Assembly (NCBI GenBank): GCA_944368945.1
Contig: CALVXH010000001.1
Coordinates: 1 to 53,913, forward strand
Origin: an uncultured Bacilli bacterium
GTDB lineage: Bacteria; Bacillota_I; Bacilli_A; RFN20; CAG-826
Direction: 5' to 3'
Length of the DNA: 53,913 nt
Below, in pieces: positions 6,249 through 51,261 of the stretch. The position numbers and the translations under genes are program-made. Positions within the stretch are counted from its first letter, which is position 1, and each line of letters opens with the position of its first letter. Under the pieces are notes generated by a model. That model had not been told where the DNA came from and did no database searches. It was given only the letters and a program-made list of their open reading frames with translations.

Positions 6249-6947
6249 ATGGGTCAAAAAGTTAATCCAGTAGGAATGAGAATCGGTTTAAATAAAAACT
6301 GGAACTCAAGATGGTACGCTTCCGATAAAGATTATGCACATTTCTTATCCGAAGATATGAAAATTAGAAATTTCATTGAAGAAAAAGTTGGACGTGAAGC
6401 ACAACTTTCTCACATTGAAATTGAAAGAAAAAAGAATGATAAAGGTTATTTCGTTAAAGTTATAATCTTCGTTGCGAAACCTGGAACTGTTATCGGTCAA
6501 AAAGGTGAAAATATTAATAAATTAACTGAAGCTTTAGTAAAAATGTTAAAGTGCACAGTTAAGATTGATGTTGTTGAAGTTAAACAACCATACTTAGATG
6601 CAAGAATTGTTGCAGATCAAATTGCTGCTCAACTCGAAGCTCGTGCAAGTTTCAGAATCGTTCAAAAGAAAGCTATTTCTCAAGTTAGAAAAGCCGGAGC
6701 AAAAGGTATTAAGACTGAAGTAAGTGGTAGACTTGCTGGAGCTGATATCGCTCGTAGTGAATGGTATAAAGAAGGAACAATGGCTATCAATACATTAGCA
6801 AGTGATATTGATTATTCATGTAGAGAAGCTATGACAACTTATGGTAAACTCGGCGTTAAAGTTTGGATTTGCCGTGGTGTTAAAGATTTCTCATTAAAGC
6901 CTGAAACTCCTGAAACACCTAATAAAAATTCAAAGAAGGGAGAATAG
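6249..6947 (+). CDS. rpsC: 30S ribosomal protein S3
   Basis: [13 protein letters not shown]...KH domain...[17 protein letters not shown]. Confidence 0.97.
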
Positions 6948-6949
6948 TT

Positions 6950-7369
6950 ATGTTACAACCAAAAAGAGTTAAGTACAGACGCCCTCATATTATTAGATAT
7001 GAAGGCTTATCAAAAGGTGGTAACACTGTCGCCTTTGGTGATTATGGCTTACAAGCTGTTACAGGTAATTGGGTAAGCGATAGACAAATTGAAGCTTGCC
7101 GTATTGTCTTATCAAGATATACCAAAAGAGAAGGTAAAATTTATATCAGAATCTTCCCACACTTAGCAAAGACTAAAAAGCCTGCTGAAGTCCGTATGGG
7201 TAGTGGTAAAGGTAATCCAGAATACTGGGTTGCAGTAGTTAAAAAGAATAGAGTTATGTTTGAAATTGGCGGTGTCAGTGAAGAAGTTGCTATGGAAGCT
7301 CTCCATCAAGCAAGTTATAAACTCCCACTTCAAACACGTATTATTAAAAAGAATAAGGAGGTTAAATAG
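6950..7369 (+). CDS. rplP: 50S ribosomal protein L16
   Basis: [11 protein letters not shown]...[17 protein letters not shown]. Confidence 0.97.
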
Positions 7370-7371
7370 TT

Positions 7372-7581
7372 ATGAAGATTAAAGAAGTTAGAGAATTATC
7401 TACTGAAGAATTAAATAATCGTATTTACTCCTTAAAAGAAGAGTTATACAACTTAAAGAGAAAGAAAGCAGTTGGACAACTCGAAGATTTAATGGAAGTT
7501 AGAAGAGTTCGTAAAGATATCGCACGTGTCTTAACAGTCTTAAAAGAAAGAGAACTCGGAATGGCTAAAGAAGGTAAGTAA
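7372..7581 (+). CDS. rpmC: 50S ribosomal protein L29
   Basis: 69 aa, ELSTEELNNRIYSLKEELYNLK, operon position. Confidence 0.95.
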   Translation: MKIKEVRELSTEELNNRIYSLKEELYNLKRKKAVGQLEDLMEVRRVRKDIARVLTVLKERELGMAKEGK

Positions 7582-7583
7582 TT

Positions 7584-7913
7584 ATGGATCACAAGAAGAG
7601 AATTACTGGAACAGTCGTAAGCGACAAGAGTGCTAAAACATTAGTTGTTTTAGTTGAAGGTTATAGAAACCATCCTAAATATAAAAAGAGAGTTCAATTC
7701 AGAAATAAATACTATGCACATGATGAAGAAGGCTTAGCCCATGTCGGTGATGTAGTTACTATTGAAGAATGCAGACCTATGAGTGCTTTAAAGAGATTTA
7801 AACTCGTAAGCGTCGTTAAGAAAGCTTTAGAAGATGTTAAAGTCGATGAAAGTGAAGAATTAAAAGAAGTTTTACATGAAACTTCAGAAGAAGATAACAA
7901 GGAGGCTAAATAA
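7584..7913 (+). CDS. rpsQ: 30S ribosomal protein S17 (acidic C-terminal tail)
   Basis: GTVVSDKSAKTLVVLVE...HPKYKKR...YYAHDE and operon position. Confidence 0.95.
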   Translation: MDHKKRITGTVVSDKSAKTLVVLVEGYRNHPKYKKRVQFRNKYYAHDEEGLAHVGDVVTIEECRPMSALKRFKLVSVVKKALEDVKVDESEELKEVLHETSEEDNKEAK

Positions 7914-7916
7914 ACT

Positions 7917-8291
7917 ATGATACAAGTCGAAACAAATTTAGTTGTCGCTGATAATAGTGGTGCTCGTGTTGTCAGAGTCTTCAGAATTTATGGTGGAAGC
8001 CATAGAAAATCATGTACAGTCGGTGATGTTGTTCAATGTGCTGTTAAAGATGCTATCCCAAACGCAAAAGTTAAAAAGGGTGATGTTGTTAAAGCAGTTA
8101 TCGTTAGAACAAGCTACCCATTAGAAAGAAAAGATGGTTCAACAATTAGATTTGATGACAATGCTTGCGTTATCATCAATGAAGATAAGACACCAGTTGG
8201 AACCCGTGTCTTTGGACCAGTTGCAAGAGAACTTCGTGATAAAGGTGAAGGATTTATGAAAATCGTCTCTTTAGCACCAGAAGTCTTATAA
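7917..8291 (+). CDS. rplN: 50S ribosomal protein L14
   Basis: [17 protein letters not shown]... Confidence 0.98.
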
Positions 8292-8304
8292 GGAGGTAAA
8301 CGAA

Positions 8305-8616
8305 ATGAAACTTAAAAAAGGTGATAAAGTAATCGTTATCTCTGGAAAAGATAAAAAGAAAGTTGGCATAATTCAAAAAGCTTTACCAAAAGAAAATAAA
8401 GTTGTTGTTGAAGGTGTCAATATTCGTAAAAAGCATGTAAAACCTACACAAGCTAATCCAGAAGGTAGCATTCAAGAAATCTATGCTCCAATCGATGCTT
8501 CAAAAGTTATGTTTTACGATGAAAAAAGTAAAAAAGGTTCAAAACTTGGTTATAAATTCGATAAGGATGGTAACAAAGTAAGAATCATCAAAAGAACACA
8601 AAAAGAAGTTAAATAA
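8305..8616 (+). CDS. rplX: 50S ribosomal protein L24
   Basis: [21 protein letters not shown] (KOW motif) and operon position. Confidence 0.96.
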
Positions 8617-8627
8617 GGAGAAAAGTT

Positions 8628-9245
8628 ATGGCAGAGACAAAGAAAACTACAGCTAAAAAAACTACTAAAGCTGCAACTTCTAAGGGACATAAAACTCCTG
8701 TAAATCATACTCGTTTATTAGATGCTTATAATAACGAAATTAAAGCAAATTTAATGAAACAATTTGGTTACACAAGCGTTATGCAAGTTCCTCAATTATC
8801 AAAGATCGTCATTAACATTGGTGTTGGTGATGCAACTCAAGATAAGAAGAGACTTGAAGAAGCAGTTGAAGAACTTGCTTTAATTACTGGTCAAAAACCT
8901 GTTATTACAAAAGCTAAAAAGAGTATTGCAACTTTCAAATTAAGACAAGATGAACCAATTGGTTGCAAAGTTACTTTAAGAGGAATCAGAATGTATGAAT
9001 TCTTCGATAAGTTAGTATCAATATCATTACCAAGAGTTAGAGACTTCCGTGGTGTTAATAAAAACGCTTTCGATGGAAGAGGAAATTATACTTTAGGTAT
9101 TAAAGAGCAATTAATCTTCCCTGAAATTGACTACGATAAAGTTCAAAAAGTTAGAGGTATGGATATTGTAATCGTTACAACAGCTAAGACTGATGAAGAA
9201 GCACATGCTTTATTAAAAGAATTAGGCATGCCATTTAGTAGATAA
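8628..9245 (+). CDS. rplE: 50S ribosomal protein L5 (about 25-aa Lys/Thr-rich N-terminal extension)
   Basis: [16 protein letters not shown]...[22 protein letters not shown]. Confidence 0.97.
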
Positions 9246-33530: not shown

Positions 33531-34838
33531 ATGAAGAAAATTGAACGAGATAACTACATTTTTAAAAAGAAATGTTTATTAATATTATTATATTTATACT
33601 ATATAAATGATGTTGACTATCATGGAATAATATTTAGAAGTTTTGGGTTTCATTTTGACCCAACATGTAACTTTAAAGTTATTGTAAATTCTAAAAATAA
33701 TCATATTCATAAATATGTTGTACATATATTTGTAAGTAATAGGGGAGTTAATTTAGAAGAACTCGATGTAATGGGAAATATAAATATTTTAAAAGTTAAG
33801 AATGTTAAAACTATTGACCCTTATATTCCATCATCTTCGTTAAATATATATTTTGATGAATCAAATTTTCTTGTTTATGGTTATATGGAAGGAAAACTTA
33901 TTAACTATAAATTGATTCAAAATAGTGGAACATATTTTAAAGATGAAATTCTCTATTATTTAAGCAATGATGTAAAATATGATAATGTAAATAAATCAGC
34001 AAATAATTTTACATTGTATTTATTAAGGTTTTTTACTGAAAAGATACAAACTGATTTAATTATGGGTGCAGGAATTAATTGTGATTATGGCGCTAAGGAT
34101 TGGGGACATTTAATCGAAGCTTTAAATAATGAATTTTATAAAAATGATGATAAAGCGATTGAACAAATAAAGCACTTTGTTGGAGATGAACTCTTCGTTA
34201 ATGGAAAGGTACTTAAAACAAGTGGATTTGATACATATAAATCTTTAAACCAAGAACTATATTTATTTAAAGAAGCAAAGAGCTTTAATGATTCAAATTC
34301 TACTTTATATAATTGCGTTAATTATTTAATAAAACACCCTAAAAGTGAGGTAATTACATATAATTACGACACAAATCTTGAATATTTACTTAAAAAGAGA
34401 AATATAAAATATACTAGTGTTTATGATGAAAATAGTTTTGTGCATAATGATAGCATAGTAACAATTTTCCATGTTCATGGCTTATTACCTTTCGATAAAT
34501 ATAAAGAGCAAAAATATCTTGATTCCTTAGTTTTCAATGAATCAGAATATTTTAATTTATACAATAATCCTTACTCATGGAACATATCTAAGCAAATGCA
34601 TGACTTTACTTTTAGAACGTGCTTATTTATAGGTGTTTCTTTAACCGACCCTAATATGAAAAGGCTATTGGAAGTTTCGATAAATCCATTAAAATTTAAC
34701 TTTATCTTTATGAAAAAAGAAAATGGATATAATGAAAATACATATCGTACAGTCACTAATTATTTCTTTAGTTATGACCTCATTACTATATGGATTGATA
34801 ACTACGATGAGATTGGAAAGTGGCTCGAATTAATATAA
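33531..34838 (+). CDS. Standalone SIR2-like (SIR2_2 family) protein with an unknown about 170-aa N-terminal domain
   Basis: IMGAGINCDYGAKDWGHL, VITYNYDTNLEYLL, IFHVHG, LVFNESEY and LFIGVSLTDPNMKRLL occur in the order expected for PF13289-type SIR2 domains. No clear SD, so the start is uncertain. Confidence 0.7.
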   Translation: MKKIERDNYIFKKKCLLILLYLYYINDVDYHGIIFRSFGFHFDPTCNFKVIVNSKNNHIHKYVVHIFVSNRGVNLEELDVMGNINILKVKNVKTIDPYIPSSSLNIYFDESNFLVYGYMEGKLINYKLIQNSGTYFKDEILYYLSNDVKYDNVNKSANNFTLYLLRFFTEKIQTDLIMGAGINCDYGAKDWGHLIEALNNEFYKNDDKAIEQIKHFVGDELFVNGKVLKTSGFDTYKSLNQELYLFKEAKSFNDSNSTLYNCVNYLIKHPKSEVITYNYDTNLEYLLKKRNIKYTSVYDENSFVHNDSIVTIFHVHGLLPFDKYKEQKYLDSLVFNESEYFNLYNNPYSWNISKQMHDFTFRTCLFIGVSLTDPNMKRLLEVSINPLKFNFIFMKKENGYNENTYRTVTNYFFSYDLITIWIDNYDEIGKWLELI

Positions 34839-34950: not shown

Positions 34951-36396
34951 ATGAGAACAAATGGAATTTTAATGCCTTTAAGTAGTTTACCTAGTAAATA
35001 TGGAATAGGCGATTTTGGAAAAAGTTGTTTTGAATTTATAGACTTATTAACAAATGCTGGAGTGAAATTTTGGCAACTATTGCCTTTAAATCCTTTAGGA
35101 GGCGGGAATTCTCCATACCAATCTATATGTTCATATGCAATTGATCCTATTTATATAGATTTAAGTGAATTTTATGATGAAGGCCTTGTAGATGAACTCG
35201 AATCATTTAACGAGAAAAAGAAACGTGTCGATTATCCTAAAGTTAGAGCTTTTAAGATGAAGGTTTTACATGAGGCATTTAAAAATCAAAGAGACACTAA
35301 TAAAGTTGCTTTTAAAAATTTCTTAAAAGAAAATCCGTGGATTGATGCTTATGCACGTTATCTTATTTTAAGAGAAAAGAATAATTATCAAGAATGGTGG
35401 TTCTGGCCAAAAGAAGAAAGATATGATTTTTATAAGAATACTTTTGACTATTCAAAATATAAGGAAGAAATCTTATTTACAGAGTGGTGTCAATATATCG
35501 CTTATAAGCAATATCTGAAATTAAAAAAATATGCTAATGAGTGTGGAATTAAATTAATGGGTGATATTCCTTTTTATGTTGGAAGTGATAGCAGCGACGC
35601 ATGGTCTAATCAAGATGAATTCTTATTAGATGAAAACGATAGACCAAGAAAAGTTGCTGGAGTACCACCTGATTACTTTAATGAGAATGGTCAAAGATGG
35701 GGCAATTTAATTTATGATTGGGAATATATGAAAGATGATAATTTTACTTTCTGGATTTCAAGAGTTGAACATGCCTCAAAATTATTTGATTATTTAAGAA
35801 TCGATCATTTTAGAGCTTTTGACACATATTGGGCTATTAATCCTGAGTGTCCAACAGCGATTGATGGAAAATGGGAAAAAGCTTATGGTGAAGAATTCTT
35901 TAACGAACTTAAGTCTAAGAATTTAAGTATAAAGTTATTTGCTGAAGATTTAGGAGAATCTGCCCCTGGAGTAGAAAAGTTAAGAGATGAGTTTGAATTA
36001 CCAGGAATGAATGTAGTTCAATTTACCATCCTAAATCCTGAATTTAAAGAAAAGGAAAATCAAATAATTTATACTGACACTCACGATAATGACACTTTAA
36101 AAGGTTGGATTTTATCATTAAATGCAGGTGATAAAGAGTTACTTAAAATCGCTTTAAGAGAAAAAAATATCTCTGGAAGAAGCTTATACGACAAATTATT
36201 AAATTATACTCTTTCTAGTGAATGTGATTATGCTTGTATACCTATTTGGGATTATTTAAAATTGGATTCTTCTGCGAGGATGAATACTCCTGGTACATGT
36301 GGTTCGCCAAATTGGGAGTTTAGATTAGTTACTTTTGCAGATTTTATAAAAATTATTAATGATATTAAAGGACGTTTAATAAAGTTTAAGAGATGA
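34951..36396 (+). CDS. malQ: 4-alpha-glucanotransferase (amylomaltase)
   Basis: MRTNGILMPLSSLPSKYGIGDFG, RIDHFRAF and TDTHDNDT motifs. ATG 34951 is preferred over the TTG at 34900. TGA stop. Confidence 0.92.
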   Translation: MRTNGILMPLSSLPSKYGIGDFGKSCFEFIDLLTNAGVKFWQLLPLNPLGGGNSPYQSICSYAIDPIYIDLSEFYDEGLVDELESFNEKKKRVDYPKVRAFKMKVLHEAFKNQRDTNKVAFKNFLKENPWIDAYARYLILREKNNYQEWWFWPKEERYDFYKNTFDYSKYKEEILFTEWCQYIAYKQYLKLKKYANECGIKLMGDIPFYVGSDSSDAWSNQDEFLLDENDRPRKVAGVPPDYFNENGQRWGNLIYDWEYMKDDNFTFWISRVEHASKLFDYLRIDHFRAFDTYWAINPECPTAIDGKWEKAYGEEFFNELKSKNLSIKLFAEDLGESAPGVEKLRDEFELPGMNVVQFTILNPEFKEKENQIIYTDTHDNDTLKGWILSLNAGDKELLKIALREKNISGRSLYDKLLNYTLSSECDYACIPIWDYLKLDSSARMNTPGTCGSPNWEFRLVTFADFIKIINDIKGRLIKFKR

Positions 36397-37685
36397 AAAA
36401 AATTGCTTTAATTTCACTTGGATGTGTTAAAAATACTGTTGATAGTGAAGCTATATTAGCTTTATTTAAAAAACCTGATTTTGAGATTGTTACTAAACTT
36501 GAAGATAGCGATGTAATTATTATTAATACCTGTGGATTTATTTTAAGCGCAAAAATTGAAGGTATTGATACAATACTTGATACCTTAAAATATGGCAAGA
36601 AAGTTGTTGTTATTGGTTGCTTAGTACAAAGATATTTAGATGAACTTAAAAAATCTATTCCAGAAGTTACAATGTGGGTTCCTTTTAAGGATGAATATTC
36701 TTTGTTACCTTCAAAAATTCAATCACTTTTTGAAGATGAAAAGGTAGTTGATAAATTTGATATTTTTACTAGAGTAACTGAACCTTCATTTTCAACTTAT
36801 ATTAAAATTAGTGAAGGATGCGACAATTTTTGTGCTTTTTGTGCAATACCTGCAATAAGAGGTAGATTCGTATCTTATCCAATAGAAGAAATTGTAAATT
36901 ACGCAAAAAAAGCCGCAAATTCTGGCTCAAAAGAAATTGTTTTAATTGGACAAGATCCTACGAGCTATGGAAAAGACATAAAGGATAAGAACATCAATTT
37001 AGTTAGTTTACTTAAAGAATTAGACAAAATTGAAAATATTTCAAAAATAAGATTACTATATTTATATCCTGATGGAATTACTGATGAATTAATAGATTTT
37101 ATTAAAACGCATAAAAAAATGTCTCATTACTTTGACATCCCTATTCAACATTGTTCAACTAAAATATTAAAGCTAATGAATCGTAGAGATACAAAAAAGA
37201 CCACTGAAATACTTTTTAATAAAATTAAAAAAGAAATTCCTGATGCTATATTAAGAACGACTCTTATCGTTGGTTTTCCTGGTGAAACTACAAAAGAATT
37301 TAATGAATTATTAGCATTCATAAACAAATACAAATTTAACCATTTAGGTTGTTTTACATATAGCAAAGAAGAGAATACTAAGGCCTATTTTTTGCCTCAC
37401 CAAGTCAGAGAAAATACTAAATTTAAACGTAAGGATATTTTAATGAAAAAACAAGCTAAAATATCTTATGAATTGAATAAAAATCTCATTGGTAGAAAAT
37501 TTAGTGCTTTCGTTACTAAAGTTAATAGTGAAGACTATTTTGTAAGATGTGATTATAACGCACCTGATGATATTGATGGGAATATTATTTTAAAAACAGA
37601 TAAAAAACATAATGTTGGCGATATTGTTGAAATAGAAATTACTCATGCGTTTGTATATGATTTAATAGCTAAAGAAATCTATTAA
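36393..37685 (+). CDS. rimO: Radical-SAM methylthiotransferase, RimO-like (ribosomal protein S12)
   Basis: ISLGCVKNTVDSE, CDNFCAFCAIP (CxxxCxxC), C-terminal TRAM domain, 430 aa. Confidence 0.8.
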   Translation: MKKIALISLGCVKNTVDSEAILALFKKPDFEIVTKLEDSDVIIINTCGFILSAKIEGIDTILDTLKYGKKVVVIGCLVQRYLDELKKSIPEVTMWVPFKDEYSLLPSKIQSLFEDEKVVDKFDIFTRVTEPSFSTYIKISEGCDNFCAFCAIPAIRGRFVSYPIEEIVNYAKKAANSGSKEIVLIGQDPTSYGKDIKDKNINLVSLLKELDKIENISKIRLLYLYPDGITDELIDFIKTHKKMSHYFDIPIQHCSTKILKLMNRRDTKKTTEILFNKIKKEIPDAILRTTLIVGFPGETTKEFNELLAFINKYKFNHLGCFTYSKEENTKAYFLPHQVRENTKFKRKDILMKKQAKISYELNKNLIGRKFSAFVTKVNSEDYFVRCDYNAPDDIDGNIILKTDKKHNVGDIVEIEITHAFVYDLIAKEIY

Positions 37686-37699
37686 AGCAATGTATTAAA

Positions 37700-37728
37700 A
37701 GTCTAATTAAAAAAATTAGGCTTTTTTA
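37700..37728 (+). terminator. Rho-independent terminator of rimO
   Basis: 8-bp stem gtctaatt/aattaggc (37701-37708 / 37714-37721, one G-U pair) followed by T6. Confidence 0.7.
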
Positions 37729-37845
37729 TTTAAAATGGAAAAAAATAAATAATGATATTGTTGTGCATAATGAAAGGATATATTTGTGCAATCGGCACAC
37801 TAAGGTTGAATAAACTAAGTAGATTGTCTACACGATTATGGATTT

Positions 37846-39042
37846 ATGTACGAAAAAAGATATCTTGATATTAGAAAATTTAAACTTTATCCAAGAAATA
37901 ACGAAGTAAAGCTGATTAATAAAGAGTTTAAATTTTATCAACGCTATTTTTTAGCGTTGGAAAAATATGTATCTTCTAATATTGATGGAAGGAAAATAAC
38001 TAAGAAAACTATTGTTGATTTATGTAATGAATTTAGTAACAAAGTTAAAAAACTTAATTTCGACTATACAAAATATTTTGCCAATGATCATTTTTTATTC
38101 GCAAAAGAAAACTTGCTAAAAAAATTATTTTTTAGAAAGAAAGAGAATATAAAAAAGTACATACCTATAAAAAGAACGATTAAATTATCTGGATATGGCT
38201 GCTTCATTATGAATGATTATTTCTACTTAAAAAATGTTCCTAAAATAAAAATTAGGCCAAAGTTAGAAATGTATGGTGATTTTACTTTTATAACAATAAC
38301 AAAAATTCATAAAGATTTTTTTCTAACAATTGTTAAATCTGTTAAAGCAATAGATTTTCCTAAGACAGGTGTTGCCTGTGGTATTGATATAGGTTTTAAA
38401 GAATACGCAACCATATATGATTCTAACGATGACGTTACAAAAATAGACTTTAAAAATGATAAATTAGATACTTTGGTATCGAAAGCTAATTTTTATAAAA
38501 AAGTTTTGGTGAATATAGAAAATAAAAATATTAATTATAAAAAATCAAAAAATTATATAAAAATTTTATCCAAATTAGAAAAGGTGTATCGTAAAATTTC
38601 AAATATTCAGGCTAATTTTTATAGTAGAATAACAAACTTAATTGTTAAAAAATATGATTTAATAACAATAGAAAGTATTAATTTGGAATCACTATATAAA
38701 GTTCGGACATCAAAAATAAATTTACAAAGAAGATCGTTTGGAAAGTTTTTTAAAGTATTAGAAGATAAATGCAAAAAATATAATAAAAAGTTAATTAAGG
38801 CTGATCAATTATTTATGTCTAGTCAAATTTGTTCTTCTTGTGGAGTCGTTCATCATGAGATGAAGGATTATACATTAAGAAGATTTAAATGCGAATGTGG
38901 TTATGAAGCAGATAGGGATGAAAATGCTGCTAAGAATCTTATGTATTATGGAATAAGATTTGTTAGATATAAAAATGTTAGCTTAGAAAATGGTAAAAAT
39001 GAGGGTGAAATGTATGAACTACAAAATAAAATTAAAAAGTAA
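37846..39042 (+). CDS. tnpB: TnpB / IS605-OrfB-family RuvC nuclease (OMEGA-type RNA-guided nuclease homologue), catalytic residues intact
   Basis: RKFKLYP N-terminal motif; GIDIG (D181); ITIESINL (E276); CSSC...CEC zinc ribbon; DRDENAAKNL (D356/D358). No tnpA gene nearby. Confidence 0.85.
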   Translation: MYEKRYLDIRKFKLYPRNNEVKLINKEFKFYQRYFLALEKYVSSNIDGRKITKKTIVDLCNEFSNKVKKLNFDYTKYFANDHFLFAKENLLKKLFFRKKENIKKYIPIKRTIKLSGYGCFIMNDYFYLKNVPKIKIRPKLEMYGDFTFITITKIHKDFFLTIVKSVKAIDFPKTGVACGIDIGFKEYATIYDSNDDVTKIDFKNDKLDTLVSKANFYKKVLVNIENKNINYKKSKNYIKILSKLEKVYRKISNIQANFYSRITNLIVKKYDLITIESINLESLYKVRTSKINLQRRSFGKFFKVLEDKCKKYNKKLIKADQLFMSSQICSSCGVVHHEMKDYTLRRFKCECGYEADRDENAAKNLMYYGIRFVRYKNVSLENGKNEGEMYELQNKIKK

Positions 39043-39568
39043 TGAAAAATCCAATAAAAAAATATTAAAAGTAACTAGTGATGAAAAGAAAAATCTAGTG
39101 AAGAAATACAAAAATATTGTATTTTTAGAAAATGTTATAGGAACACCTTATTTATGTTATAAGATTATTAAATCAAATATTATTAAAGAAGATACAATCA
39201 TATGTTTTGGTAAAATAAAATTTAATAATAGTAATGATGGTAAATACTCTAAAAAGTATAATAATATATTTGTTCTTATAACATTAGAAAAACTTAAAAA
39301 AATTTATAATAAGTTTTTAGAAATATATGGTGATGAATATATTAAAGATTATTTAAACATTATCAAAATATTAAATTATACCTATGCAATACAATATGAT
39401 GAAATAAGAAATGAAGTTACTTTTTTGTCCAGTATTTTATTAAGAAAATATAAGTCTTCATTTATAATTAGTGAAAACAATGATGTAATATTTTTAGATG
39501 ATATTTCTAAGATTATGTATATCCACGAGACAAGTAATTTTAATTTAGAAAGATTTGCCATAGCATAA
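39014..39568 (+). CDS. Unknown 184-aa Lys/Asn/Ile-rich protein, translationally coupled to tnpB
   Basis: Stop-free 184-codon frame in very AT-rich DNA. A GAGGGTG SD (39001-39007) lies 6 nt before ATG 39014. Overlaps the 3' end of tnpB by 29 nt. Confidence 0.6.
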   Translation: MNYKIKLKSNEKSNKKILKVTSDEKKNLVKKYKNIVFLENVIGTPYLCYKIIKSNIIKEDTIICFGKIKFNNSNDGKYSKKYNNIFVLITLEKLKKIYNKFLEIYGDEYIKDYLNIIKILNYTYAIQYDEIRNEVTFLSSILLRKYKSSFIISENNDVIFLDDISKIMYIHETSNFNLERFAIA

Positions 39569-39570
39569 TA

Positions 39571-40236
39571 ATGAATAATTTTTATATTGATGAAAGTGGG
39601 AGTATGACAAAAAAGTATGCAGAAGCTTTTCCTTTTTTCGTTATTTGTTTAATCAAAGTTTTTGAACCAGGTAAACTAAAACATCTATATAAAAAATTAT
39701 TTTTAAAGAAAGGAAGTTTATTTTTCACAGGGAGTGATAAAAGAATTGAACTTAAAGGATCGAAGTTAAAATATGATGATAAAAAGTATCTAGCGAAATA
39801 TTTTAATAGACCAGGTTTATTTGAAGTTTATTATATAAAAGTAGTGAACAAAAATTTGGATCAATCAGAAATTTATAATAATAAAGCACGCGCTTTTAAT
39901 TATTTAATTGCCAAAGACTTGGAACATTTATTTAATAAAAAGCTCATAAACTATGGAAAATACTATCTGTATATAGATAACAGAAATGTTAAGAATGAGT
40001 CAAAAAACTCATTAGAAGATTACTTAAATATTAAATTTGCAGTTGAAAGAACTTTTTTAGAAAGCGTTGAGGCAAAATATTTTGACTCAAAAAATGTTAA
40101 GTTTATACAACTAGCCGATTTCTTTTCTAATTTATTTTACTCGGATTTAATGACTCAAAATTTTGAAAATGAGATGATTGAATTCGTTAAAAATAAAATT
40201 ATACGCGATATTTTTATTTTTCCTATAAAATATTGA
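39571..40236 (+). CDS. DUF3800-like protein
   Basis: N-terminal FYIDESGSM and C-terminal FIQLADFFSN motifs match my recollection of the DUF3800 signature. It starts 2 nt after the upstream stop. Confidence 0.65.
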   Translation: MNNFYIDESGSMTKKYAEAFPFFVICLIKVFEPGKLKHLYKKLFLKKGSLFFTGSDKRIELKGSKLKYDDKKYLAKYFNRPGLFEVYYIKVVNKNLDQSEIYNNKARAFNYLIAKDLEHLFNKKLINYGKYYLYIDNRNVKNESKNSLEDYLNIKFAVERTFLESVEAKYFDSKNVKFIQLADFFSNLFYSDLMTQNFENEMIEFVKNKIIRDIFIFPIKY

Positions 40237-40249
40237 ATATACAAATGTA

Positions 40250-40278
40250 TTGACGTAATTTAGGGAAACTATTAATAT
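40250..40278 (+). promoter_or_regulatory. Near-consensus orphan sigma-70 promoter
   Basis: TTGACG (40250-40255), exactly 17-nt spacer, TAATAT (40273-40278). No protein-coding ORF lies downstream. Confidence 0.6.
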
Positions 40279-40284
40279 AAGTCA

Positions 40285-40398
40285 TAAAGAGTAAGTCTTA
40301 ATATATTCTATTTTCAAGGTAAGCTATGTTTTTTCGTAGCAGTATGTTAAGCCATTTATGTTAAACTGCCAACGATATTACTTCTGAGGCAGTTTTTT
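40285..40398 (+). ncRNA. Candidate small RNA of about 115 nt (possible guide/omega-like or regulatory RNA of the adjacent cassette)
   Basis: Bounded by the promoter above and the hairpin ctgcc/ggcag plus T6 (40366-40398). Internal hairpin gctatg-tttttt-cgtagc (40323-40340). The octamer tatgttaa is repeated (40343-40350 / 40356-40363). Confidence 0.4.
40366..40398 (+). terminator. Putative intrinsic terminator
   Basis: 5-bp GC-rich stem ctgcc/ggcag (40366-40370 / 40388-40392), a large 17-nt loop, then T6 (40393-40398). Confidence 0.45.
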
Positions 40399-40493
40399 CA
40401 TTTAAAAAACTTTAATTTATCTAACTAAATTATATCGTTAGAAAAATTTTTAGATTTTTTTCTAAAATTTTTCTAAATACATACTTTGAAAAA

Positions 40494-40525
40494 TAAAAAA
40501 AGCCGATTAAATCGGCGCTTTTTTA
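40494..40525. terminator. Bidirectional rho-independent terminator (serves tRNA-Thr on the minus strand)
   Basis: Stem gccgat/atcggc (40502-40507 / 40511-40516) with an A-run upstream and T6 downstream. Confidence 0.75.
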
Positions 40526-40529
40526 AATC

Positions 40530-40603
40530 TGGTGCCTCTTCGCAGAATCGAACTACGAATAGATCCTTACCATGGATCCGTTATGCCATTTAACTAAAGA
40601 GGC
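40530..40603 (-). tRNA. tRNA-Thr: tRNA-Thr (anticodon GGU), CCA encoded
   Basis: Hand-folded cloverleaf. Acceptor GCCTCTT/AAGAGGC, D stem GTTA/TAAC, anticodon stem GATCC/GGATC with loop AT-GGT-AA, T arm CGTAG-TTCGATT-CTGCG, 3' ACCA. Confidence 0.9.
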
Positions 40604-40819
40604 TTGATAGCCTATTTAGTATAGCATAACGGAGCCATTACACAAAACAATTATTTTTATTTCTTTGCAGCCTTAATAAAATGAGACCTTATATTTTAAG
40701 GAATATATGCGTATTTCTAATAAAAATAGATAAAAGACTCGTTTATAATAACAGAAATTACTAATAAACGGATTATGTGCATATTTGAGTTTTGCATAAT
40801 AAATTAATATAATATTTTT

Positions 40820-45549: not shown

Positions 45550-48500
45550 ATGGAAGGCGAAAATAAACTTGTTTTAGAGATTGATGCTATTAATAAAGTA
45601 AACTATTGTCTTGTTCATAATGGTATTAAAATTATAAGCTCTATTAAACTTATTAATGAAAGTGACAAGATATATAGAAATTTAATTGTCAAAGTTCGCT
45701 TTGAACCAACTTTTGCCGATGGCTATACTTTTGAAATTTCATTTATTGACAAGAATCAATCCATTATTGAAAGAAATATTAATCTACCTATTAACTTTGA
45801 CTATTTATATTCTTTAAATGAATCTTTTAAAGCTAATTTAATTTGTGAAGTCTTTGATGGTGAAAATATTATCGCAAGTGTAATTAAACCATTAGAAGTA
45901 TTAACTTTTGACCAATGGGATGGCTCACAAGTTGCTACACAATATCTAGCTAGCTTTGTTTTGCCAAATGATAATGTAGCTAAGAAAATTTTAAAAAACG
46001 CAGAAGAAATTTTAACTTCTGAATCTACATTAAAATGCTTTTCTGGGTATATTGATGGAGATAAAAATTTAGTTATTAAAGAAGTTGGAGCTATTTATTA
46101 TGCTTTATTAAAAGAAAATATATCCTACGCTTTACCTAAACCAAGTTTTGAACTTAATGGTCAAAAAATACGTTTACCATTAGAAATAATTAATAGTAAA
46201 TTTGCAACATGTCTTGATTCAACTTTACTTTATTCAGCAATACTTGAACTTGCTGGGCTTAATTCTTTAATTATTTTAATTGATGGACATGCTTATTTAG
46301 GTGTGTGGCTAGATGATGAAAACTATCCTAGTGTTTTAATTGAGGACAAAGCTTACATTGAAAATAAAGTTAAAAATAATGAAATTATTTTAATAGAAAC
46401 AACTTTAATTACTAGTAAAGCTAGTCCAAGTTTTGAAGAAGCAATTAATGCAGGCAAGCATAATTTAAATACAAAAACAAAGACCTTCTACGCTATTGAT
46501 TTAAGAAGTGCTAGGGCAAGTCAAATTAAACCTTTACCTATATCTAGTGATGAAACTGGAAAATATATATTGGTTGATGAAAAGGACTTAGATATTAAAC
46601 CTGATTTAAATTATTCTGTTGAAAATGTGCGTATAATCGACAATAAAATTAATAAAGATAGATTTGATGTTTGGGAGAAAAAACTTTTAGATTTAACAAA
46701 TAGAAATAAATTAGTTAGTTTCGTGCCAGGCAACCAGCATTTTCAATTCTTTGCTTATGATATTTATAGATTCTTTGGTGCTTTGCTTCATGAAAACTTA
46801 CTTGTTTTAAGCGAAAAAATGGAAGTGTATAAGGAAGTTGTTGATAAAATCTTTGATGTCAATTTTTCTCAAAATAAAACAATTTTTGATAATGATATTG
46901 AAAACGAAAGAGTTAGACTACTAGTCACAGAGAAAAAGCTTCCGACAATATTGCGCAATTTACAAAGCAATGCTAAAAGTTCAATTGAAGAAAGTGGTAG
47001 CAATACATTATTTGTAACTTTCGGAACACTTTCTTACAAAGAAAAAGGAAAAGTAAGATATGCGCCTTTAATCTTAGTCCCAGTTGATATTACAAAAAAT
47101 AGTACTGGAAGAAATTATTCACTTTCAGCTCGTGATGATGAAATACTAGTTAATAATACATTATTTGAATATTTAAAAGTCAATTTCGATTTGCATTTTG
47201 ATGAGTTACGTAAAATCCCTTACGATGAGGAAAATGATTCTTACGACTTAAAATCTTATTTTGATACATTAAGAAGCAAAATTACTGGTTTAGAAGGTTG
47301 GACAGTTAGTGAAACAGCATTTATCGGCATATTTTCGTTTACTAGATTTATTATGTGGAATGATTTAAGAAATAGAAAAGAAGATCTTTTAAAGAATGAT
47401 ATTGTTAAATCTTTAGTAGATAATTCAATTCCATTTAAAAATAAGAATCAACCTGTAAATATTAATGATTTAGATTTAATTCTTGCCCCAAATAAATATG
47501 CAATTCCTTTGATGGCTGATTCTAGTCAAACTGAAGCAATCGTTGATGCAAGTAGAGGATTATCGTTTGTTTTAAATGGCCCACCAGGAACTGGCAAGTC
47601 TCAAACTATTACAAACATGATTATTAATTCATTATATAATAAAAAGACAGTACTTTTTGTTGCTCAAAAAATGGCAGCTCTTGAAGTTGTTAAAAAAAGA
47701 CTAGATGAAACTGGTTTAGGATTATTTTGCCTTGAATTACATTCAAATAAAGCGCAAAAAGCAGATGTTTTGTCACAAATTAAAAGAATTTTAGATACAG
47801 GAAAATTGAAAAAACCTGAAGAATACGATGTAATATGTGCTCGTTTATTAGAAAAAAGAAATGAATTAAATAACGATATCAAAAAGTTACATAAAAATAG
47901 CACTAATGGATTTGATTTATATGAAAACATTACTTGCTATGAAGAATATAAAGATTATTACAAAAATATTAAACTTCAAGGCATTGATTATAGTTTAATA
48001 AATAAGGATATTTACTTAGCGACTTTAAAAGAAATAGAAACGTTTATTAACTTTAAAAAAGAACTTGGAGATAAATATATTAAATTATTTAGTCCAATCA
48101 AATTAGAAGAATACTCTATTTCTTTAAGAACAGATTTTAAAGAAACTTTAGATCAATATTCAGTTTCTTTATTTAATTATTCAAGTTATCTACAAAATGT
48201 TTTGCAATCAACTAATATCACCTTGGCTCTAAATTATTCTAATTTATATAATTTATATTTGGCTGTAACTTTTTATAACTCAAAGAAAAATAATATTTAT
48301 AAAGAACTTGTTTTATCAAACGACGAAAAAGAGAAGAGTATATTAAAAGGTCTTGTTAGTAAATTAGGTGAGTTCAAATCTACTAATGATTTAATTAATA
48401 GTTCATTTAATAGAAGTGTTTTAACATTACCTTTTGATAACTTGCTTTTTAGATATGATCGTTCTTTAAATTTATCATTTTTTAGTAAGCGAAAAGAACA

Positions 48501-51261
48501 AAAAGCAATATTAAACGAATTAAAAAGATATGCTTTATTGCCAAAATCACTTAATAAAGGAGGACTATATAAATTATTAGATGATTTAAATAAGTTCTCT
48601 AACTTTTATAAAGAGTTAAAAGATAATGAAAATAGTCTTAAGCATTATTTTAAAGATGATTATAAAGAATTTGATACAGACTATTCACTTGTATTAAGTA
48701 ATATAGAAACAAGTTTAGAATTTAAAAAAGTATTCGACTCTTTTGATGCAAGTGACAAATTTAAACTTTTAGATGAAATTTCTAATAATAGTTTTGATCG
48801 TTATAGAATTATTGCTGAGAACAGCAATTCAATTGAAGATAAATTAAATACAAAATTCAAATTATCTATTAAATCATTAGGATTTACAAATTTCTTTGCA
48901 GAAACTAATAAATTTATCGAAAGTTTAAAAGAGAATCTTGAAAAACTTAAAGAATATGTTTTGTTTAATGAAGAAAAAAATAAATTAAATAAATTGCCAG
49001 TTGGAAATTTAGTTAAACTTATTCTTGAAGGTTTTGTTAAAGATGATGACGCAATTAATTTTTATAAAAAAGATATAAACTATAACTTAGCAATGCTTCG
49101 TATAAATAATGATAAAGATTTAAATTTATTTAGTGGTGCTAAAGAAAATGACACGATAGAATCTTATAGAAAATTAATTAATGAATATAATGAAATTACT
49201 ATTAAAGAAGTTGCAGCTAGATTGTCAAAATCTACTTCGCAATTCTTTAATAGTGAAAATTCAAGTTTAAGTAGTGAATTTGTAATCTTAAATAAAGCCA
49301 TATCAAATAATGGTAGAGGAATTTCATTAAGAAATTTATTTGATTCAATACCAAATATTTTACATTTAATTTGTCCTTGCTTTTTAATGTCTCCTTTATC
49401 GGTTGCTCAATATTTAGACCCTAAAAATGAACCATTTGATATAGTTATTTTTGATGAAGCAAGTCAAATTACAACTAGTGATGCAATTGGCGCTATTGCT
49501 AGAGGCAAAAGTGCAGTAATTGTTGGCGATGAAAAACAACTTCCTCCAACAAGTTTCTTCCAAGCAAATACTAGTGATGAAGATGATTTCTTTATTGAAG
49601 ACGGAGAAAGTGTTTTATCTGATTGTCTGAATATATCTATGCCTAAAAAATATCTTTCTTGGCATTATAGAAGTAAAGATGAAAGTTTAATTGCTTTCAG
49701 TAATGCTTCTTATTATGACAATAGATTATTAACATTCCCTTCACCTGAAAATATTGAAGGTGCAATTACTTATAATTATATTAGTGATGGTGTTTATGAA
49801 AATAGACGTAATAAACGTGAAGCAGAAGAAATTATTAAAGAAGTGACAAGACGTTTAAAAGATCCTATATTATCAAAAAAATCTATTGGTATTGTTACTT
49901 TCTCAATTGCTCAACAATCATTGATTGAAGAAAAGTTCCAAGAAGCATTACGTAAAGATCGTGATTTAGAAAATGCAGTTTCTTCACAAAAAGAGGAACT
50001 ATTTATCAAAAACCTTGAGAATGTTCAAGGAGATGAAAGGGATGTTATTATCTTCTCTATTTGCTATGGTCCAGGCAAAGATGGAAAAGTAAGTTTAAAC
50101 TTTGGACCTTTATCAACTAACGGTGGTGAAAAGCGATTAAATGTTGCTGTTTCTAGAGCTAGGGAAGAAATGATAATTTATACTTCTTTGCGTAGTGATA
50201 TGATTGATTTATCTAGAGCTCAAAATAGTGGATCTAGAGGATTAAAGGAATTTTTAGAATATGCTAGAAGAGGCAAGAGTTACATTTTAATTAAAAATGG
50301 TGAACAAAAAGAATATAGAGAAGGAATTGAAAAATATATTGCTAGAGACCTTGAGGCTAGAGGATATAAATGTAATATTAATGTCGGAACTAGCGATTTT
50401 AGAGTTGATATTGGTGTTATAAGTAAAGAAGATCCTAATAAGTATTCATTAGGCATTTTGTGTGATTCAAAATCTTACATTGAAAGTAAAACTGCTAAAG
50501 ATCGTAATGTTACTCAAAAAGCAGTTTTAAATCGACTTGGCTGGAAAATTATTAGAATTTGGTCACTTGACTATTTCGATTCACCAAATTATGTAATTGA
50601 TAAGATTGTTGAGGCAATAAATAATCCTCATTTTGATGAATCCCAAAATGATGCTAGGATTCCTCACATTTCTTTTGAAAAATCTGATGAAGTAGTATCT
50701 ATGAATCACGCTATTGATTATGTATCAACTGGATATATTAAAAAGAGCGATGATAGTGATAATTTCTTTATGTTTTTAGATGAGGTTAAAAACGTCTGCA
50801 ATTTCTTTATTAAAAATGAGGCACCTATAAGTTATAGATTATTAGTTAAAAAGGTATTAGATCATTATAATATTTCAAAAAATTCCGCAAAAACTAGAGA
50901 AGTATTTTATAAGGTACTTAATGGATATAAAGTCACATATACTGGTGATGTTCCATTTTATTGGAGCGATGAGTTACAATATTTAAGCTTAAGTAAATAT
51001 CGTGTTGGTGGTGAAAGAGAGTTTATTGATATTCCTAAAGAAGAATTATTAATTGCTATTAGCGATATCATGAAAAAGAAATTATCTCTTAATGAAGTAG
51101 AACTCACTAAGGAATTAACAAACTGCTTTGGATTTACAAAAGTTGGTGATACCATTAAAAATGTTGTCGATATTGCAATTCAATATGCTTTAGAGAAAAA
51201 AGTAATTAGAGAAGAAAATGGAGCGTATTATTATATAGCGCCAACAAGAGTAGAAAGGTAA
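45550..51261 (+). CDS. 1903-aa multidomain protein: transglutaminase-like N-terminal region, DUF4011-like region, Upf1-like SF1 helicase, Vsr/DUF559-like PD-(D/E)xK nuclease, DUF3320-like C-terminus (Hhe-like defence helicase-nuclease)
   Basis: ATCLDS...GHAYLGVW (C221/H247); WEKKLLDLTNRNKLVSF; GPPGTGKS (G677, nt 47578); IFDEASQ (D1302, nt 49453); VGDEKQLPP; WHYRS; VQGDERDVIIFS; NVAVSRAR; FRVDIGV...LGILCDSKSY...RIWSLDYF; NEAPISYRLLVKKV. Confidence 0.8.
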   Translation: MEGENKLVLEIDAINKVNYCLVHNGIKIISSIKLINESDKIYRNLIVKVRFEPTFADGYTFEISFIDKNQSIIERNINLPINFDYLYSLNESFKANLICEVFDGENIIASVIKPLEVLTFDQWDGSQVATQYLASFVLPNDNVAKKILKNAEEILTSESTLKCFSGYIDGDKNLVIKEVGAIYYALLKENISYALPKPSFELNGQKIRLPLEIINSKFATCLDSTLLYSAILELAGLNSLIILIDGHAYLGVWLDDENYPSVLIEDKAYIENKVKNNEIILIETTLITSKASPSFEEAINAGKHNLNTKTKTFYAIDLRSARASQIKPLPISSDETGKYILVDEKDLDIKPDLNYSVENVRIIDNKINKDRFDVWEKKLLDLTNRNKLVSFVPGNQHFQFFAYDIYRFFGALLHENLLVLSEKMEVYKEVVDKIFDVNFSQNKTIFDNDIENERVRLLVTEKKLPTILRNLQSNAKSSIEESGSNTLFVTFGTLSYKEKGKVRYAPLILVPVDITKNSTGRNYSLSARDDEILVNNTLFEYLKVNFDLHFDELRKIPYDEENDSYDLKSYFDTLRSKITGLEGWTVSETAFIGIFSFTRFIMWNDLRNRKEDLLKNDIVKSLVDNSIPFKNKNQPVNINDLDLILAPNKYAIPLMADSSQTEAIVDASRGLSFVLNGPPGTGKSQTITNMIINSLYNKKTVLFVAQKMAALEVVKKRLDETGLGLFCLELHSNKAQKADVLSQIKRILDTGKLKKPEEYDVICARLLEKRNELNNDIKKLHKNSTNGFDLYENITCYEEYKDYYKNIKLQGIDYSLINKDIYLATLKEIETFINFKKELGDKYIKLFSPIKLEEYSISLRTDFKETLDQYSVSLFNYSSYLQNVLQSTNITLALNYSNLYNLYLAVTFYNSKKNNIYKELVLSNDEKEKSILKGLVSKLGEFKSTNDLINSSFNRSVLTLPFDNLLFRYDRSLNLSFFSKRKEQKAILNELKRYALLPKSLNKGGLYKLLDDLNKFSNFYKELKDNENSLKHYFKDDYKEFDTDYSLVLSNIETSLEFKKVFDSFDASDKFKLLDEISNNSFDRYRIIAENSNSIEDKLNTKFKLSIKSLGFTNFFAETNKFIESLKENLEKLKEYVLFNEEKNKLNKLPVGNLVKLILEGFVKDDDAINFYKKDINYNLAMLRINNDKDLNLFSGAKENDTIESYRKLINEYNEITIKEVAARLSKSTSQFFNSENSSLSSEFVILNKAISNNGRGISLRNLFDSIPNILHLICPCFLMSPLSVAQYLDPKNEPFDIVIFDEASQITTSDAIGAIARGKSAVIVGDEKQLPPTSFFQANTSDEDDFFIEDGESVLSDCLNISMPKKYLSWHYRSKDESLIAFSNASYYDNRLLTFPSPENIEGAITYNYISDGVYENRRNKREAEEIIKEVTRRLKDPILSKKSIGIVTFSIAQQSLIEEKFQEALRKDRDLENAVSSQKEELFIKNLENVQGDERDVIIFSICYGPGKDGKVSLNFGPLSTNGGEKRLNVAVSRAREEMIIYTSLRSDMIDLSRAQNSGSRGLKEFLEYARRGKSYILIKNGEQKEYREGIEKYIARDLEARGYKCNINVGTSDFRVDIGVISKEDPNKYSLGILCDSKSYIESKTAKDRNVTQKAVLNRLGWKIIRIWSLDYFDSPNYVIDKIVEAINNPHFDESQNDARIPHISFEKSDEVVSMNHAIDYVSTGYIKKSDDSDNFFMFLDEVKNVCNFFIKNEAPISYRLLVKKVLDHYNISKNSAKTREVFYKVLNGYKVTYTGDVPFYWSDELQYLSLSKYRVGGEREFIDIPKEELLIAISDIMKKKLSLNEVELTKELTNCFGFTKVGDTIKNVVDIAIQYALEKKVIREENGAYYYIAPTRVER

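Follow-up and report, generated by a model that had tools for sequence, protein, structure and literature searches.

A chromosomally fixed, active-site-intact TnpB gene with a conserved upstream structured RNA in uncultured gut Bacilli

The window examined here is a stretch of 53,913 nucleotides from an uncultured Bacilli bacterium (GenBank assembly GCA_944368945.1, contig CALVXH010000001.1, positions 1 to 53,913), and its subject is a tnpB gene, of the family known from insertion sequences (IS) of the IS200/IS605/IS1341 type, together with two open reading frames (ORFs) that follow it directly. A reading made from the letters of the sequence and without database searches (hereafter the sequence-only reading) had proposed that this nuclease is fixed in a three-gene unit with accessory proteins. 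Comparison with related loci bears out the fixation but not a conserved three-gene system, since tnpB stands alone in some lineages. We favour, with a probability of roughly 0.55, the interpretation that a fixed TnpB with an intact active site is accompanied by a structured RNA on its 5' side, and that ORF2 and a DUF3800 gene with its own small RNA (sRNA) are lineage-specific additions.

The host is an AT-rich gut member of the Bacilli and a relative of Candidatus Onthovivens. The G+C content of the window is 28.7%, and the identical TnpB protein was found on an ENA gut-metagenome scaffold identical to the window and on one Logan contig. Among genomes carrying members of the TnpB clade, the nearest named one is a metagenome-assembled genome (MAG) of a Candidatus Onthovivens sp., the rest being labelled uncultured Bacilli or Mollicutes. 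The comparison loci, which bear L numbers below, are MAGs or contigs throughout. The features of the locus are listed below.

36393-37685: rimO-like radical-SAM gene, upstream of tnpB
37701-37728, + strand: terminator hairpin and T-run of the rimO-like gene, read from the sequence; left limit of the tnpB unit
37729-37845, + strand: conserved 5' leader of tnpB, with an A-rich box (AAAATGGAAAAAAATA), a GTGAAAGGA box and a pseudoknotted core
37784-37845, + strand: core RNA element, ending at the tnpB ATG; defined by covariation
37846-39042, + strand: tnpB (ORF1), 398 aa, with intact RuvC triad D181/E276/D358 and a CxxC...CxC zinc ribbon
39014-39568, + strand: ORF2, 184 aa, an orphan whose first 29 nt overlap the end of tnpB; Shine-Dalgarno (SD) sequence GAGGGTG at 39001-39007
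39571-40236, + strand: ORF3, 221 aa, DUF3800 by Pfam match, with an RNase HII-like predicted fold
40250-40278, + strand: promoter-like site (TTGACG, 17 nt, TAATAT) ahead of the sRNA, from a consensus scan
40283-40360, + strand: structured core of the sRNA, scoring 96 bits with covariance model R2
40366-40398, + strand: terminator-like hairpin CTGCC...GGCAG and T-run, candidate end of the sRNA, read from the sequence
40502-40527, strand not assigned: bidirectional terminator at the boundary between cassette and tRNA, kept beside the tRNA in all lineages
40530-40603, - strand: tRNA-Thr(GGU), its 3' end toward the cassette; conserved right-hand landmark

The boundaries of the three ORFs had been read correctly from the sequence, as had the catalytic codons, with D181 at 38386-38388, E276 at 38671-38673 and D356-R-D358 at 38911-38919. 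An alternative start at 38990 would lengthen ORF2 to 192 aa. A scan of the window revealed no terminator-like site anywhere from the first codon of tnpB to the end of ORF3, and the interval 37600-40700 contained neither multi-copy direct repeats nor a repeat array, that is, no CRISPR array. The window held no second tnpB and, in agreement with the sequence-only reading, no Y1 tnpA-like ORF, the latter being a weak test made with an IS200 TnpA query. No reverse transcriptase domain was present among the Pfam calls for the locus, and the neighbours of ORF3 are tnpB, ORF2 and the tRNA-Thr gene.

The TnpB protein and its fixation between rimO and tRNA-Thr

ORF1 has the full TnpB layout that had been recognised by eye. 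It exceeded the Pfam cut-offs for OrfB_IS605 (35.4 bits, cut-off 30.5) and Cas12f1-like_TNB (69.6 bits, cut-off 26.3) and the NCBIfam cut-off for guided_TnpB (108.9 bits, cut-off 100), and it aligned over its full length with the ISDra2 TnpB structures 8bf8/8exa (E=1.7e-24), with the WED/REC/RuvC/TNB length kept. The triad residues D181, E276 and D358 and the zinc-ribbon cysteines C329, C332, C349 and C351 were invariant in an alignment of 14 clade members of 29-55% identity. Judged by these residues, the TnpB looks catalytically competent rather than TldR-like, as had been suggested from the window by itself. Beyond generic Cas12f-like matches of TnpB, none of the PADLOC defence models was matched by ORF1, ORF2 or ORF3.

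The tnpB gene occupies the same chromosomal slot, between a rimO-like gene and a minus-strand tRNA-Thr(GGU), in ten lineages (the window, L003, L005, L006, L007/L009, L008, L010, L011, L088, L089 and L090), whose TnpB orthologues range from 57% down to 33% identity. A wider order is usually shared as well, comprising SIR2_2, GH77, rimO, tnpB, tRNA-Thr, three ABC genes, MGS and a helicase of about 1900 aa (Hhe/PDC-S37). Pairwise identities of TnpB track those of RimO closely (Spearman 0.88, Pearson 0.93, 45 lineage pairs), which is the signature of vertical co-divergence. The ratio of nonsynonymous to synonymous substitution rates (dN/dS) in close and deep comparisons was 0.09-0.15 for tnpB, against 0.06 for the rimO-like gene, and purifying selection on tnpB was evident in close pairs (dS about 0.05-0.3) as well as in distant ones (dS about 1.7). 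Because the slot is the same, the divergence parallels that of RimO and dN/dS is about 0.1, these comparisons show tnpB to be an immobilised, vertically inherited, single-locus gene whose intact active site has been retained under purifying selection since before the lineages split.

In a scan of species-representative genomes, each of four clade MAGs had a single tnpB locus; several TnpB loci each were found in Enterococcus cecorum, E. columbae, Youngiibacter multivorans and Alkalihalobacillus alcalophilus. Additional near-identical copies of a 1.3-1.6 kb tnpB unit with defined ends, which the sequence-only reading had named as evidence that would speak for an ordinary IS, were not seen in the studied clade and were seen in the nearest outgroup (L015 and L072, about 30% identity). 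Here, 79.6% homology extends over 1.3 kb only and the flanks differ, and the unit, whose 5' end is short (promoter and SD) and whose stop codon is followed by about 155 conserved nt, behaves as an ordinary IS1341-type unit. In the studied clade, we found no omega-RNA scaffold over the tnpB 3' end running to a right end. The lineages without ORF2 have no conserved 3' non-coding region, and where tnpB ends and ORF2 begins, conservation is among the lowest seen along the block, with no conservation island there. With ORF2 starting inside tnpB, the lack of a non-coding 3' tail noted from the window therefore stands.

The outgroup unit (L015:39-1320 and L072:7969-9280) carries tnpB only, and its 3' tail shows compensatory-looking changes (AGTACGGCAGCGACTGTCGG...) and is a candidate omega-RNA that should be useful for comparison. 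The motif TATGG(A/T)TT(T)ATG at the start codon is common to this unit and the studied clade.

A pseudoknotted RNA directly upstream of tnpB

About 115 nt ahead of the tnpB ATG are conserved at the nucleotide level in every lineage, among TnpB proteins that are only 33-57% identical, and the leader of the window is 98% identical to that of L003, compared with about 93% for the tnpB gene. The rimO terminator hairpin varies in sequence by lineage, and the conserved leader lies 3' of it. The GTGAAAGGA box corresponds to the 3' strand of a CTCCTTT/AAAGGAG hairpin found in other lineages, and tnpB has no obvious SD sequence. Within the core element, the two strands of stem P1 (37786-37789 and 37795-37798) enclose the loop AAUCG at 37790-37794, stem P2 pairs 37819-37823 with 37827-37831, the conserved single strand CUAAGGUUGAAUAAACUAAG is invariant, and the P1 loop AAUCG pairs with CGAUU at 37833-37837 to form a pseudoknot.

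An alignment of 13 sequences (A8) showed 93.4% of cells paired and compensatory changes in 9 of 14 pairs, including a switch from C-G to U-A in the pseudoknot in five of the sequences. Its covariation score was reached by 0 of 500 shuffles, and controls in which the alignment was slid were 25-44% paired. The alignment contains nine G-U cells and no A-C cells, and the 5' RNA is therefore placed on the (+) strand of tnpB. A small ORF had been considered as another explanation of the conservation and was rejected, as the apparent peptide MKG...TRLWI has stops in L006 and L007 and lies in another frame in the window; RNA is also the reading favoured by the compensatory changes.

A covariance model of the core, which scored 79 bits in the window, found matches only upstream of tnpB genes of the syntenic clade. 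Each gene has one match, as does each member of the tandem pair in L011, and L090 has two. The same model found no copy at the at least 70 classical TnpB loci searched or in the rest of the window, and the element had no match in Rfam. Scans of metagenome and viral contigs with a 16-nt pattern gave chance matches and one duplicate of L010, among the matches listed for metagenomes.

In ISDra2, the omega-RNA pseudoknot adjoins the guide, its 3' strand occupying positions -5 to -3, and every Cas12 guide RNA likewise has a conserved pseudoknot (PMC10097598). Since the placement of the pseudoknot in the 5' element resembles that in the ISDra2 omega-RNA, we suggest, as a tentative assignment to which we give somewhat less than even odds, that the 5' RNA may be the cognate RNA of TnpB, derived from or replacing the omega-RNA. 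In its simplest form, the element would be an autoregulatory operator on the mRNA of tnpB itself: the 3' strand of the pseudoknot is only nucleotides away from the start codon, so that TnpB, when bound to the leader, would mask this codon and thereby repress translation of its own mRNA. In another version, processing of the leader may yield an RNA with a guide that starts near 37839 and extends over the tnpB start codon. If the element is bound by TnpB, it would break the rule that TnpB and Cas12 guide RNAs lie downstream, and it would suggest autoregulation through an omega-RNA-like leader.

Two loci carry duplications of these features. In L011, an uncultured Bacilli MAG, tandem tnpB genes (6527-7729 and 8001-9227) both lie inside the slot between rimO and tRNA-Thr. 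The translation of the upstream paralogue has D replaced by V in RuvC-I and E by Q in RuvC-II, and its 5' RNA copy is degenerate (47 bits); the downstream gene is intact. L011 thus has a nuclease-dead paralogue, nearer to TldR, paired with an active one. In L090 (and L091) the 5' core occurs twice ahead of a single tnpB (L090:5769-5832 and 5933-5996), about 100 nt apart, the first copy lying inside a long-range stem. This doubling may be likened to the omega-RNA duplications of some exapted TnpBs.

The variable slot downstream of tnpB

The interval from the tnpB stop to tRNA-Thr differs between lineages. It is empty in L011, L089 and L090, holds only a PBECR3-like ORF2 in L006, L007/L009 and L088, a 182-197-aa ORF and a DUF3800 gene in L005 and L008, and the orphan ORF2 with DUF3800 in the window, L003 and L004. 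L010 has a 5.6-kb insert with a different DUF3800 gene on the opposite strand, a true DUF3800-I RNA and restriction-modification-like genes. This distribution shows a slot that is empty in the most distant lineages, holds a fast-evolving ORF2 in nearer ones, and contains DUF3800 and the sRNA in the window and its sisters.

The insert of L010, an uncultured Mollicutes MAG, has features at 5795-5907, 6643-6759 and 6964-8318, all on the minus strand. Its DUF3800-I RNA (RF02969, 77.9 bits) stands directly upstream of a 259-aa DUF3800 gene, and the insert also carries a Fusobacteriales-1 RNA (RF02920, 63.9 bits) and a restriction-modification-like pair, methyltransferase-like, of 223 aa and 226 aa.

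That the frames of ORF2 and ORF3 are not noise, as had been argued from their length, is supported by dN/dS values of 0.21-0.24 and 0.02-0.08, respectively, between close relatives. The G+C content of ORF2 is only 18%, and a stop-free frame of 184 codons is therefore far outside chance. By these measures ORF2 is a real but orphan gene. In keeping with the lack of a recognisable motif in the first reading, it had no match among the families of Pfam, NCBIfam, PADLOC and PHROGs. A word-indexed search of 5.8 billion proteins returned only relatives of at least 86% identity, and an exhaustive HMMER profile search of 1.84 billion representatives added nothing further; within these searches, no homologue of the window ORF2 was detected beyond this cluster of close relatives. 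An AlphaFold2 (AF2) model of ORF2 reached a mean predicted local distance difference test (pLDDT) score of only 45.9, and a fold search with it gave no match, which is meaningless given so poor a model.

The ORF2 proteins of other lineages are in part similar to each other. Those of L006, L007/L009 and L088 (183-191 aa) resemble PBECR3 (PF18812), a family of BECR-fold RNases, below its gathering score, with 19.6 bits for L006 against a cut-off of 30 and a best E value among L006, L007 and L088 of 1.1e-6; the window ORF2 had no match to this profile. Weak, collinear similarity links the L005/L008 group to the L006/L007/L088 group (pairwise BLAST 8e-4), and hhalign comparison of the window ORF2 group with ORF2s at the same position elsewhere gave insignificant probabilities of 0.1-2.6%. 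The gene evolves rapidly, L005 and L008 sharing 35% identity in ORF2 as compared with 76% in TnpB. Its start lies close to the tnpB stop in six lineages (offsets of -29, -4, -4, -4, -1 and +2 nt), and a common origin of ORF2 across lineages is possible from these start positions and the similar lengths.

ORF3 belongs to DUF3800 (PF12686, 48.5 bits, cut-off 21), which confirms the assignment made from its terminal motifs. It has the N-terminal DE (D7, E8) and C-terminal QxxD (Q180, D183) motifs of the family, and D7, E8, E60, D136, Q180 and D183 were invariant in an alignment of 28 homologues (A11). The AF2 model built from a 28-sequence alignment has a pLDDT of 92.3, and its top Foldseek matches were RNase HII structures (1eke and 3p83, E=1e-6, probability 1.0). 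DUF3800 homologues outside the clade (27-48% identity) adjoin integrases, serine recombinases and tRNAs, and are also present in 75 viral contigs. The expectation that ORF3 would be linked to TnpB in other genomes was not borne out, as none of 79 such loci outside the clade had a TnpB or ORF2 homologue within 4-5 kb.

Downstream of ORF3 lies the sRNA, whose core consists of AGUAAGUCUUA ... GGUAAG-hairpin ... UAAGCCAUU. The core is 100% identical in L004, with surrounding sequence at 84-93%, and the end hairpin and T-run are kept in L005 and L008 despite entirely different sequences. The promoter-like site is conserved in L004, L005 and L008, a consensus match alone that does not imply function. 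A covariance model (R2) built from three sequences, with matches counted at E<=1, gave 42 matches beside DUF3800 genes, always on the strand of the gene, 40-250 nt downstream and/or upstream and sometimes in two copies. Beyond the copies in the window, L004, L005 and L008, these matches represent about 30 phage or mobile-element DUF3800 loci. In an alignment of 27 sequences (A14), 93.8% of cells were paired and 15 of 23 pairs were compensatory (20 of 23 by RNAalifold), and none of 500 shuffles reached its covariation score.

The sRNA matched no Rfam family, and the window gave no match to the DUF3800-I RNA (RF02969) even at E<=10. A relative (L241) scored only 19.4 bits with the DUF3800-I model, whose gathering score is 44.2, and the true DUF3800-I RNA of L010 looks unrelated to the sRNA of the window. 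This agrees with the published finding that 11 or more structured RNAs, unrelated to each other and without an assigned function, occur with DUF3800 genes (PMC5737381). ORF3 and the sRNA thus probably belong together as a portable and self-contained protein-RNA module, such as phages and integrative elements carry, in which DUF3800 may act on or with its sRNA. With a structured RNA of its own, DUF3800 would therefore be a module separable from tnpB. The sRNA motif is doubled in L221 (4862-4939 and 5722-5797), L222 (3653-3729 and 4517-4592) and L230 (4744-4820 and 4877-4954), where the copies flank the DUF3800 gene or stand in tandem downstream of it; this could mark a mobile or processed unit. 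We also considered a complementarity of 16/18 between the first codons of tnpB (37849-37866), where the would-be guide after the pseudoknot lies, and the apical hairpin of the sRNA (40321-40338), which is not kept in L005 or L008, is weaker in L004 and is probably due to chance.

The right-hand border of the slot suggests how such modules may arrive. L004 shares positions 37721-40535 of the window at 94% identity and differs on both flanks. Its right break lies inside the 3' end of tRNA-Thr, where TGGTGC is kept (L004:2828-2840) and is followed by AraC, GH2 and GH3 genes. L008 keeps a 16-nt core of the tRNA 3' end, TGGTGCCTCTTCGCAG (L008:7219-7240), followed by XRE-type regulators and a 409-aa surface-like protein. 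The simplest reading of these breaks within tRNA-Thr is that a different element has integrated at the tRNA, whose 3' end serves as an attachment site for mobile elements, and not that the block with tnpB was itself moved. The ORF3/sRNA module was probably acquired through this site, a statement that we make with less confidence than the one that it is a module; no remnant attachment repeat of the tRNA 3' core was found near tnpB or ORF2. In L004, the left flank is known for only 24 nt, which resemble a terminator hairpin, and the same tnpB (L004:150-1346, 98.6% nucleotide identity to the window) carries a nonsense allele, Q321*, beside intact ORF2 and ORF3. The dS values between L004 and the window form a mosaic (tnpB 0.05, ORF2 0.24, ORF3 0.63), indicating recombination between strains. 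L004 had been considered as evidence that the block is mobile; this was rejected once L008 showed a like break inside tRNA-Thr.

Competing explanations and relation to known systems

The overlapping or abutting starts and the absence of a terminator between the genes lead us to infer that tnpB, ORF2 and ORF3 are co-transcribed in the window lineage. Even so, the distribution of the genes suggests that ORF2 and ORF3 are probably cargo and not obligate partners of TnpB. In the fullest form of the earlier proposal, the three genes with the RNA would be a three-component RNA-guided defence system, with TnpB as sensor or nuclease and ORF2 and DUF3800 as accessory or effector proteins. The operon-like packing would fit such a system, as would the coupling of ORF2 to the tnpB stop in six lineages and the two independent DUF3800-RNA modules that adjoin tnpB, and there is precedent in the published TPR-DUF3800 proteins of Cas12a2/a3 and type VI-F loci and the DUF3800 of type VII retrons. 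We nevertheless regard it as improbable. Selection has maintained tnpB without ORF2 or ORF3 in L011, L089 and L090, and without DUF3800 in L006, L007 and L088; the 79 DUF3800 loci elsewhere are all without TnpB and ORF2 homologues; no conservation of ORF2 could be detected from one lineage to another; the sRNA accompanies DUF3800 and not TnpB; and the only PADLOC matches are the generic ones of TnpB. A related scheme seems to us equally doubtful: the TnpB scaffold would have moved to the 5' side, so that the leader is a true omega-RNA equivalent, bound and perhaps processed, and the repeated pairing of this TnpB with DUF3800-RNA modules, of two independent types in one slot, would reflect functional cooperation of the kind proposed for Cas12a2/a3 with DUF3800. 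If the leader were such an equivalent, a domesticated RNA-guided nuclease would autoregulate via its own mRNA or work with one fixed guide, in defence or in some other role in the cell.

The main rival of the cognate-RNA assignment is a cis-regulatory leader (an operator, attenuator or ligand sensor) that TnpB does not bind, the guide lying elsewhere or the TnpB acting free of RNA. Several features of the element are those of a leader, as it ends at the start codon of a gene without an obvious SD and in several lineages includes an anti-SD/SD-like hairpin (CTCCTTT...AAAGGAG). A similar element is also absent at the 3' end of the classical tnpB loci, and fixed active TnpBs may act without RNA, as noted in PMC10691335. 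We consider this explanation unlikely, though less so than the schemes above, because the element is inherited with tnpB rather than with the locus, as its presence ahead of both tandem copies of L011 and its doubling in L090 illustrate, because an H-type pseudoknot directly ahead of a would-be guide mirrors omega-RNA and CRISPR RNA (crRNA) architecture, and because TnpB retains the full set of domains alignable to ISDra2. We give a very low probability to an ordinary IS1341-type, tnpB-only insertion, selfish or decaying, that by chance landed upstream of unrelated genes. The protein is typical of the IS200/IS605 family, the L004 allele is already a pseudogene, and most TnpB clusters are immobile in any case (PMC10691335); an insertion of this kind would, however, hardly occupy one slot in ten lineages and co-diverge with RimO, keep a dN/dS of about 0.1 at dS of about 1.7 with invariant catalytic residues, or lack both a 3' right end with omega-RNA and a second copy in the window or MAGs, unlike the L015/L072 unit. 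Least probable of all is a 2.8-kb mobile island in which leader, tnpB, ORF2, ORF3 and sRNA move as a unit. It would account for the L004 block with its two different sides, but breaks inside tRNA-Thr in L004 and L008 are what integration of another element would produce, the short terminator-like left flank of L004 is a feature that varies between lineages anyway, and terminal repeats were not found.

The preferred interpretation of a fixed TnpB with its own 5' RNA and lineage-specific additions also has evidence against it. The packing of ORF2 against tnpB is tighter than random insertion of an island would give and argues for some functional coupling, and the occurrence of two types of DUF3800-RNA module beside tnpB, in the window and in L010, could mean a functional link instead of a shared hotspot. 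The Q321* allele of L004 indicates that tnpB is dispensable at least in the short term. The single-copy status, judged from MAGs and contigs, is putative. For a guide starting near 37839, the window contains no target of at least 17/20, and the best other match is 16/20. By the rule given in PMC10691335, omega-RNAs and arrays lie downstream of tnpB or cas12, and the upstream RNA might be no more than a common type of cis-regulatory leader, unrelated to TnpB binding. The joint transcript, the ends of the RNAs and the binding of RNA by protein are predictions. The long retention of an active nuclease implies a benefit, either at the level of the host or of the addiction type.

Two aspects of the locus are already known in kind, namely a class of immobilised active TnpBs and the association of DUF3800 with structured RNA. 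New are the clade defined by this synteny, a pseudoknotted RNA that lies upstream of the gene instead of an omega-RNA at its 3' end, and a family of sRNAs without Rfam match. The nearest relatives are the nonmobile TnpBs with active RuvC (Altae-Tran et al., PNAS 2023, PMC10691335), which likewise occupy single loci, are fixed in lineages, keep the triad and lack a transposase; that paper describes the majority of TnpB clusters as immobile and includes fixed clades in which RuvC is still active, with no function assigned. The clade between rimO and tRNA-Thr is not named in the main text of that paper, and it differs from the nonmobile TnpBs described there in its upstream pseudoknotted RNA and in the variable cargo slot directly after the stop codon. 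The canonical TnpB of IS200/IS605/IS1341 elements (ISDra2; PDB 8exa, 8h1j) is a homologous full-length protein with the D-E-D triad and zinc ribbon, and in both ISDra2 and the studied locus the 3' strand of a pseudoknot stands just ahead of the guide or would-be guide. Unlike the canonical elements, the studied locus has no tnpA, no pair of left and right ends (LE/RE), no 3' omega-RNA, no extra copies and no varied insertion sites, and its RNA is 5' of the gene and followed by the tnpB start codon, where in a canonical IS flanking DNA follows. The TldR proteins (Wiegand et al., bioRxiv 10.1101/2023.11.30.569447) are also domesticated, immobilised TnpB derivatives at fixed loci with an adjacent non-coding RNA; TldRs have lost the RuvC residues and have their guide RNA downstream, whereas the triad is invariant and the RNA upstream in the studied clade.

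The DUF3800-I to -XI motifs (Weinberg et al., NAR 2017, PMC5737381) likewise combine a DUF3800 gene, a structured RNA and a Rho-independent terminator and are common in mobile elements. The sRNA of the window does not resemble DUF3800-I in sequence, and it may be one of DUF3800-II to -XI or new. An RNase-H-fold DUF3800 is also found beside an RNA-guided or RNA-templated effector of the TnpB/Cas12 lineage in Cas12a2/Cas12a3 loci with TPR-DUF3800, type VI-F loci and type VII retrons (PMC10910872, PMC12669027, PMC7736814). The studied locus differs from these in having no CRISPR array, TPR domain or reverse transcriptase, and, unlike those cases, most of the TnpB clade lacks DUF3800, which comes with an RNA of its own.

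With at least ten traceable lineages, clear selection and a compact RNA of about 60-110 nt in an unexpected position, the clade offers a clean case for study and makes it testable which RNA a domesticated active TnpB uses, and to what end. The sRNA family, with strong covariation and many phage and mobile-element contigs, adds to the puzzle of the constant structured-RNA companion of DUF3800. For genome editing, too, a compact nuclease of 398 aa whose candidate scaffold is short may be of interest.

The defence-like neighbours named by the sequence-only reading are real, though they do not look like a variable defence island. A SIR2_2 protein is encoded at 33531-34838 (Pfam SIR2_2, with a weak ThsA match of 3.8e-8), and a 1903-aa helicase at 45550-51261 matched the PADLOC models PDC-S37 (1085 bits) and Hhe (518 bits). 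Both genes are syntenic in most lineages examined, SIR2_2 being absent, for instance, from its expected position in L090, and from this conservation of order they look like core genes of the clade.

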